Of a stretch of DNA of 64,000 nucleotides, positions 40,975-41,699 are shown piece after piece. Below the pieces are notes generated by a model. That model made no database searches and was not told where the DNA came from. It saw only the letters and a list, made by a program, of their open reading frames with translations. Source of the stretch: Octopus vulgaris (Eukaryota); NCBI GenBank assembly GCA_951406725.2, contig OX597828.1, forward strand, positions 7,750,001 to 7,814,000, given 5' to 3'. Every line of letters begins with the position of its first letter. Position 1 is the first letter of the stretch. The translations under genes and the position numbers were made by a program.

Positions 40975-41699
40975 TAAATTTCAGGGTAGTAAAATATTAT
41001 TTAGAAATGTTTTACCACTGTGGCCTAGCGTGTACAAAAACTAGTCAATAGACTATATATTATTCATTATATATACAATGTACATTTAAACACTTAGGAT
41101 GTGGCCATAATCGGACATCTAAACCGCTAGAAGGAGTAGTTAAAATCCAAACCACAATTTGGGGTAATTTCGAAAGGGAATGAAAAATAAAAATATTTAC
41201 CATCTATTTCCTGGACCATGGTTTCGAGCTATCTTCAGCAAATAAAGTAATTTGCTAGGCGAAGCTCTCATCAGCAGGAAAGCCAAAGATTAACATATTA
41301 GTCCGAGGCAATAGAGAAAATGCCTCGTGCATACATGTTATAATTTTTCAAATCCATCACGCAAGCGCAGTTTTTTTTTATCGGCAGCAAATAGAAGTAA
41401 TGCCGATTTTTTTCAAAATTAGTCAAAAGAATTATTATTGATAAATTTCAGGGTAGTAAAATATTTCGAAATTTTTTACTACCGTGGCCTAGCGTGAAGA
41501 AAAACTAGTCAATAGACTATTATTCATTATATACACACAGTGTACGTTTAAACACATAAGAGATGGCCATAAGCGGACATCTAAACTGCTAGAAGGAGTA
41601 GTTAAAATGCAAACCACAATTAGGAGCATTTGGAAATCGCGGTAGATTTGAAAAATTATAACATGCAAGCACGTGGCATGTTCTGTATTGCCTCGGACT
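40975..41699 (-). mobile_element. Hammerhead-bearing non-autonomous Penelope-like/retrozyme element (~467-bp unit)
   Basis: Direct repeat 40975-41175 / 41442-41636; inverted copy of 41300-41361 at 41639-41699; ends at a (TA)n tract; no ORF. Confidence 0.75.
41207..41281 (-). ncRNA. Canonical type I hammerhead ribozyme
   Basis: Minus strand: UUUCCUG-CUGAUGA-GAGCU...AGCUC-GAAA-C-CAUG-GUC/CAGGAAA; 7-bp stem I, 5-bp stem II, palindromic minimal stem III, GUC site. Confidence 0.9.

Follow-up and report, generated by a model that had tools for sequence, protein, structure and literature searches.

A type I hammerhead ribozyme motif is located on the minus strand at 41207..41281 of the window, the whole 64-kb stretch of DNA that was analysed. 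Read from 41281 down to 41207, helix I is formed by 7 bp, with UUUCCUG (41281-41275) pairing with CAGGAAA (41213-41207), and it is followed by the core CUGAUGA at 41274-41268. Helix II consists of 5 bp, GAGCU at 41267-41263 with AGCUC at 41230-41226, and beyond its internal loop lies an inner hairpin of 8 bp, UAGCAAAU at 41257-41250 with AUUUGCUG at 41243-41236. The core GAAA occupies 41225-41222, and the 8-nt palindrome ACCAUGGU at 41222-41215 contains a 2-bp helix III. C17 is position 41214 and, therefore, the predicted cut falls between 41214 and 41213. The motif thus has the features required of a type I hammerhead, namely CUGANGA, GAAA, and NUH around three helices, open at helix I. The first-pass annotation had proposed a complete core on this strand (CUGAUGA, GAAA, and GUC), a perfect 7-bp stem I, a GAGCU/AGCUC stem II extended by an inner hairpin, and cleavage at 41214/41213; the sequence confirms the core and both stems, stem II and its inner hairpin also form in folding, and the same bond was found as the cut. 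Its description of stem III as minimal is wrong, although the palindrome it pointed to is present: the 2-bp helix III with a palindromic tetraloop is that of the canonical animal type I hammerhead, going by the portion of PMC4209133 available to us, and judged by its bases and pairing scheme this is what the window motif is. The features of the minimal hammerhead (min-HHR) are absent in subfamily A, the subfamily of the window copy, where helix III has 2 bp and a tetraloop, helix I is 7 bp long, and positions 9 and 10.1 are not separated by an additional base.

The motif is the single descriptor match on both strands of the whole 64 kb, and 200 dinucleotide shuffles of the window yielded 0.045 loose matches per shuffle and 0 strict ones. 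When the motif is folded alone, helices I and II and the inner hairpin form, with a z of only -1.12. The pair probabilities in the monomer are 0.57-0.73 for helix I, 0.92-1.0 for helix II, and 0.0 for helix III, and the self-pairing of ACCAUGGU amounts to -11.2 kcal/mol. On these folding models the hammerhead would probably act as a dimer, a mode of action described for animal type I hammerheads in the accessible parts of PMC4209133 and of PMC6765202, the latter citing a 2016 paper on dimeric Penelope hammerheads. With regard to a loop 1-loop 2 tertiary contact, a weak distal helix may form past helix I (p about 0.11; 67.5% paired in the subfamily alignment). The Rfam hammerhead models, suggested earlier as a check on the motif, gave no match, either at the gathering score in the whole window or at E<=10 in 40200-42200. 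This miss is probably due to the long helix II extension, and it is a limit of the models and not the absence of a defining hammerhead feature.

The hammerhead occupies u156-230 of a full non-coding unit of about 462 nt that belongs to subfamily A and lies on the minus strand at 40975..41436 (u1=41436, u462=40975), as delimited by a repeat period of 460-467 and by genome copies. The 462-nt unit has a GC content of 33%, and its longest stop-free stretches are 47 and 84 codons. Penelope proteins searched against the window by tblastn gave no match, and a reverse transcriptase (RT) or GIY-YIG reading frame is absent. Directly upstream, a 5'-truncated partial unit (u262-462; 41437..41636, minus strand) stands in head-to-tail tandem with the full unit, to which it is 85% identical, forming a direct repeat that resembles a pseudo-LTR. 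Next to it, an inverted head segment of about u76-148 runs in the opposite orientation at 41638..41710 (plus strand) and ends beside a small unrelated repeat; the inverted arms 41289-41361 and 41638-41710 are 85% complementary. The 3' end of the element is a (TA)n microsatellite at 40953..40974, the probable target site. The order of the insertion is thus an inverted head, a 5'-truncated partial unit, one full unit, and (TA)n, so that the window copy comprises 1.45 units with one hammerhead and no two-hammerhead tandem. The insertion appears to be old, because its two tandem parts are only 85% alike. As a circular monomer, the unit folds far more stably than 60 shuffles (z -4.5); helix I in this circular fold has a probability of only 0.11-0.16, which counts against the explanation favoured below. 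Two further features of the window are a MITE-like repeat of about 260 bp at 41717-41977, with imperfect 15-bp terminal inverted repeats, which abuts the inverted head, and a tRNA match of 56.1 bits with a long variable arm at 27073-27154 (+).

The genome searched comprises 2.8 Gb in 227 contigs, and its microsatellites and SINEs hint at a cephalopod. DNA searches with the unit returned 1838 and 2933 candidates, 40 of which were scored each time, and hundreds of dispersed copies of the non-coding unit are present, about 88% identical. Subfamily A is represented by 151 exact genomic matches to an A-type 18-mer, and its copies have a median identity of 88% to the window unit (66 alignments at 49 loci). 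Three sister subfamilies stand beside it. Subfamily B, for which B-type patterns gave 309 and 388 exact matches, shares 75-80% identity; it carries U3, its helix I measures 4 bp, and its helix II mostly begins with an A-A mismatch at the base. Subfamily C has C3 and an altered helix I; and subfamily D, about 67-75% identical with a unit of 509 nt, has an intact core and quite different helices I and II. In four contig sets, the family occurs in three coded organisms. That subfamily B is numerous despite U3 and its frequent A-A mismatch implies that a perfect ribozyme is unnecessary for spreading, which counts against the favoured explanation.

Comparison of the subfamilies is informative on the fold. 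Across the four of them, both sides change in 6 of 7 helix I pairs and in 3 of 4 helix II pairs, the helix III palindrome is invariant in all 18 copies aligned, and 90.2% of cells are paired as against 21-42% in slid controls; these 18 rows were picked by hand, and four related subfamilies amount to few independent events. Over a smaller range (30 copies of subfamilies A-C), pairing is 84.8% and 8 of 26 pairs change on two sides. Core positions are fixed between subfamilies except for C3/U3 and N17. Homologues that neither conserved the core nor showed stem covariation had been named at the outset as evidence against the ribozyme; what the homologues show is compensatory stem changes between subfamilies, and such two-sided changes show that selection acted on the hammerhead fold in the source elements.

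After insertion the picture is different, since agreement with the majority is 94.3% in the core and 91.9% in the rest of the unit, a small difference that counts against the favoured explanation; as read from these copies, the family decays almost neutrally once inserted. The core is kept in 18 of the 34 subfamily A arms that span the motif in an anchor-picked sample. The first-pass annotation had called the hammerhead intact, and this holds for the window copy but not for its family, which decays in this near-neutral way. As an old insertion in such a family, the window copy is probably inert today, a remnant in which a good core has survived by chance. A very improbable alternative is that the host has kept or co-opted this copy as an active self-cleaving element within a host transcript. 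In its favour, the window copy is the best form of the motif seen, combining G10.1-C11.1, C17, and full helices, a combination found in 0 of the 18 core-intact arms of the same sample. The G-C pair at 10.1-11.1 is, however, a variant common to 10 of 50 aligned A segments, the rest of the window insertion is as decayed as other copies, and in a family of hundreds of copies that are about 88% identical, chance alone would be expected to leave the motif whole in some.

Several other small repeats of this genome bear hammerhead-like sequences. An unrelated repeat of about 360-460 nt, both tandem and inverted and near-identical between two contigs (L149 and L152), has a 12-mer of the hammerhead 3' half with no CUGANGA within 75 nt upstream. 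Hammerhead-like motifs with a palindromic helix III occur in unrelated small repeats at L347:6608-6926 and L099:27. A different small element (L089:90-574), arranged as an inverted pair, contains a type I hammerhead that is complete, in which helix II likewise has a long extension and the palindrome is ACGAUCGU; this element ends in (TA)n beside a Penelope-like 3' end. The genome probably holds many hammerhead families.

The manner in which the copies were inserted was examined on 100 arms, the first 100 of the 151 anchor matches in genome order. The anchor 18-mer lies 70 nt downstream of the cut, and the sample is for this reason blind to the ribozyme. The 3' ends of these arms fall at about u360-386 in 53 cases and at about u455-472 in 33, with 14 elsewhere and none beyond, so that two fixed ends about 95 nt apart take 86 of the 100 arms. 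A (TA)4 or longer run terminates 60 of the 100, every one at these two preferred ends, and at 10 of the 14 loci with arms in both orientations one arm is found at each 3' end. The family thus bears the marks of Penelope-type insertion, namely 5' truncation, partial tandems, inverted heads, and TA-microsatellite ends. The available text of PMC8557442 describes partial tandems, inverted heads, and (TA)n targets as general to Penelope-like elements, and a purified Penelope-like protein was found to use two internal start sites in vitro, which define a 'tail', and AT-rich targets, according to the part of PMC11167929 at hand. The presence of this two-start-site signature in a non-coding, hammerhead-bearing element ties retrozymes to the Penelope machinery by mechanism and not by co-occurrence.

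The same arms bear on the form of the template. Sixteen of the 100 pass u1 and continue into u462 of the preceding unit, from which it follows that the unit closes on itself and leaves no room for a gene. Tandems with two hammerheads also occur: 14 of 16 pattern matches belong to the superfamily, all of them B or C, and two further tandems are one of subfamily D with two cores (L380) and one of subfamily A with one core mutated (L223). The statement that subfamily A never forms two-hammerhead tandems, drawn from its 0 of 16 pattern matches, was dropped on account of L223. Taken together, the arms past u1 and the two-hammerhead tandems point to a template that was multimeric or circular.

A GIY-YIG search of the genome returned 6136 candidates, and among the 150 that were scored many lie in 781-codon frames. 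One autonomous element encodes a protein of 765 aa in which GIY-YIG passes the Pfam cut-off and RVT_1 falls just short of it, and its family has a minimal hammerhead-like motif with a palindrome as well as (TA)n ends. A second Penelope-like family (L345-L362), with about 60% amino-acid identity to the first, has TA targets and two 3' ends about 45 nt apart, and one of its copies is inserted in the TA tail of a subfamily B element (L144). Suitable Penelope machinery therefore exists in this genome, and it is the architecture of the unit that points to such a partner. By DNA homology, the unit has no counterpart at 36 GIY-YIG loci (best match 28 nt, E=0.007), and its matches at 58 further loci are inserted copies of the repeat itself; pseudo-LTR homology to an autonomous element was thus not seen at 36 + 58 loci of autonomous families, these two and a third among them, a small part of the 6136 candidates, which counts against the favoured explanation. 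The first family (L101:445-4090) is young, with many 781-codon frames, and a separate 346-aa frame precedes the one for RT and endonuclease; its minimal hammerhead-like motif is of the U3-A8 type and lies about 95 nt from the 3' end.

Since the 150 scored GIY-YIG candidates are a small share of the 6136 in the genome, the copies could also be the 5'-truncated tail ends (pseudo-LTRs) of an unsampled autonomous Penelope-like element. Penelope hammerheads are indeed mostly single motifs of truncated copies in the accessible part of PMC4209133, and at one locus (L020:1065-1311) a Penelope endonuclease fragment directly abuts u371 of a subfamily A copy and does not resume beyond it. This origin is nevertheless improbable. 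The 16 arms that run past u1 enter u462 and not a gene, and tblastn of 268 family loci gave 7 matches at 4 distinct places. The coding element at L144 was rejected as a partner, being an independent insertion into the TA tail, and the L020 junction was rejected as a single case; the 3' ends of both families are unlike that of the unit. Same-strand hammerhead pairs 2.4-5.6 kb apart (L137, L138, and L388) are local duplications with no Penelope protein match between them. The L020 junction itself is possibly a template switch between coding RNA and repeat RNA.

We therefore regard it as very probable that the motif lies in an old copy of a non-coding repeat of about 460-510 nt, an animal non-LTR retrozyme that was likely spread by a Penelope-like RT and GIY-YIG endonuclease, with a ribozyme predicted to cut multimers to unit-length RNAs, probably as a dimer. 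The link to Penelope and to dimers proposed in the first-pass annotation is retained in this explanation, the dimer dependence as a probable one. What is not retained is the form, as the motif is not the minimal one of autonomous Penelope pseudo-LTRs and sits in a non-autonomous unit. In the proposed mechanism, a tandem source copy would be transcribed, and two hammerheads would pair through the palindrome and then cut the multimeric transcript into unit-length RNAs, the monomers being ligated to circles or left partly uncut. A borrowed Penelope-like enzyme would nick a TA microsatellite and start reverse transcription inside the RNA, with one start site per strand, lying some 140-160 nt and 240 nt past the cut in the downstream direction. 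On a cut linear template the enzyme would run off at the cut, and on a circle or an uncut multimer it would read through and leave copies of more than a unit.

This mechanism predicts where 5' ends should fall. A gathering of 5' ends near the cut was seen in the first 49 loci, and the interval u222-232 was first suggested by these data, which overlap with the larger sample. The 5' ends of the 100 A arms are scattered, but under a constant stop rate 13 ends fall at u222-232 against 4.6 expected (P=0.0009), and 1 falls at u203-221, the 19 nt before the cut, against 8.1 expected (P=0.003). Restricted to the 74 arms not seen earlier, the test gives 8 ends at the cut where 3.5 are expected (P=0.028) and 1 before it where 6.2 are expected (P=0.014). 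A scan-wide simulation gave 4.3% for an interval as extreme, computed before the removal of one false end (L201), which was moved by hand out of the cut-site interval as its extension ran into an inverted arm. Read-through is frequent, with 54 of the 65 arms that reach the cut passing it, which counts against a reading by cleavage. In subfamily B, 74 arms gave 6 ends at the cut against 3.9 and 5 before it against 6.3, neither of which is significant. In subfamily D, 6 arms reached the cut, of which 1 stopped and 5 passed; the 619 anchor matches for D are not a copy number, because 39 of 50 belonged to unrelated repeats. These 39 reflect a 19-20-nt motif inside subfamily D that is exactly common to several unrelated dispersed repeats (L390-L438).

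The excess of 5' ends is modest and suggests that some of the templates were cleaved in vivo. The chances are put at about even that the copies record germ-line hammerhead cleavage, in which a Penelope-type RT would have run off at the cut on linear monomers and read through circles or uncut multimers. The element may instead be just as described, with a hammerhead that did not cut any of the RNAs that served as insertion templates, the excess at u222-232 being due to enzyme pausing at helix I, to template switching driven by microhomology, or to chance; we consider this a substantial possibility, somewhat short of even. The 3' strand of helix I (u224-230) covers the same place, a smaller excess is also seen at the inner hairpin (u178-188), and the origin of the interval in overlapping data, the weaker excess on the new arms, the scan-wide result, and the counts in subfamily B all fit an absence of cleavage. 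Pausing is, however, not what predicted pairing would indicate, as pairing does not track the frequency of 5' ends (Spearman 0.16, P=0.54, 17 bins), and helix II and the inner hairpin, which are far more stable, show a lower rate of ends. Microhomology of 1-4 nt with the inverted arm accounts for the three ends placed at u222-223, and 0 ends fall in u211-221, so that no end lies clearly upstream of the cut. Three arms extend as far as the second cut site, and 2 of them stop at it.

If the cleavage reading is true, it would be evidence in vivo, drawn from DNA alone, that the RNA which ends up inserted is one that a Penelope-associated hammerhead has cut. The same count of 5' ends is applicable to any hammerhead-bearing family, and should the pile-up hold over all copies, it would make ribozyme activity in vivo cheap to read out from a genome, with the natural subfamilies (C3 or U3, strong or weak helices) as built-in controls. 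No description of a 5'-end pile-up at a hammerhead cut was found in the literature, most subscription papers and supplements lying outside the search; nor was one found of this repeat family, with Repbase, Dfam, most subscription papers and supplements outside the search.

The autonomous Penelope-like elements are a first point of comparison. In the portions available of Cervera & de la Pena 2014 (PMC4209133) and Frangieh et al. 2024 (PMC11167929), their hammerheads are likewise of type I with a palindromic helix III and a predicted dimer action, and the elements likewise form partial tandems with inverted heads, use two RT start sites that give rise to a 'tail', and insert at AT-rich targets. 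The unit described here differs in having no reading frame and, in subfamily A, a hammerhead that is not minimal, and its tail is about 95 nt long, whereas that of the autonomous elements is 30-40 nt (PMC11167929, in part). The element is thus neither an autonomous Penelope-like element nor a carrier of the minimal hammerhead. On the function of such hammerheads, the same partial texts report weak cleavage in vitro (PMC4209133), and a hammerhead dispensable for insertion in vitro with no RNA-seq reads at the cut (PMC11167929); its dispensability counts against the favoured explanation. The non-autonomous Chlamys elements such as MRC1 (Craig et al. 2021, PMC8557442, available sections) are likewise non-coding and head-to-tail, with pseudo-LTRs, and are moved by Penelope-like enzymes; canonical hammerheads are missing from their clade, and their 3' ends are similar to those of their partners, whereas the present family has a hammerhead and no partner was found among the loci compared.

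The closest likeness is to the animal non-LTR retrozymes, and by the sequence-level definition the element is one of them, that is, a non-autonomous Penelope-type element. As described in the accessible text of Cervera & de la Pena 2020 (PMC7229834) and Li, Clavereau & Pollet 2026 (bioRxiv 10.64898/2026.07.22.740005), these are likewise short, low-GC, and non-coding with a type I hammerhead, occur as monomers and tandems, have a strongly self-paired monomer, and share their genome with Penelope-like elements. Their length is given as 150-450 bp (PMC7229834) and as up to 972 bp in the 2026 survey; the retrozyme of a mollusc, the mussel, for example, has 350-390 bp and about 5000 hammerheads (both sources, in part), and many invertebrate genomes hold thousands of hammerheads in repeats of this kind (PMC7229834, in part). 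Unlike those retrozymes, the copies here are mostly dispersed and truncated with one hammerhead or none, long arrays were not seen, and helices I and II measure 7 and 5 bp with a long helix II extension, where 6 and 4 bp are usual. In the part available of the 2026 survey, 21 of 57 Xenopus retrozyme families are homologous to an autonomous pseudo-LTR, whereas none was found here, and 8 of 9 Xenopus retrozyme dimers were uncleaved in vitro, which counts against the favoured explanation. By the definition of that survey, again as partly available, the window copy alone, with its one hammerhead, would not count as an 'active' retrozyme. Abundant linear and circular monomer RNA belongs to the definition of these retrozymes, whereas the family here is known from DNA sequence alone. 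The element in itself is one more animal retrozyme-type repeat.
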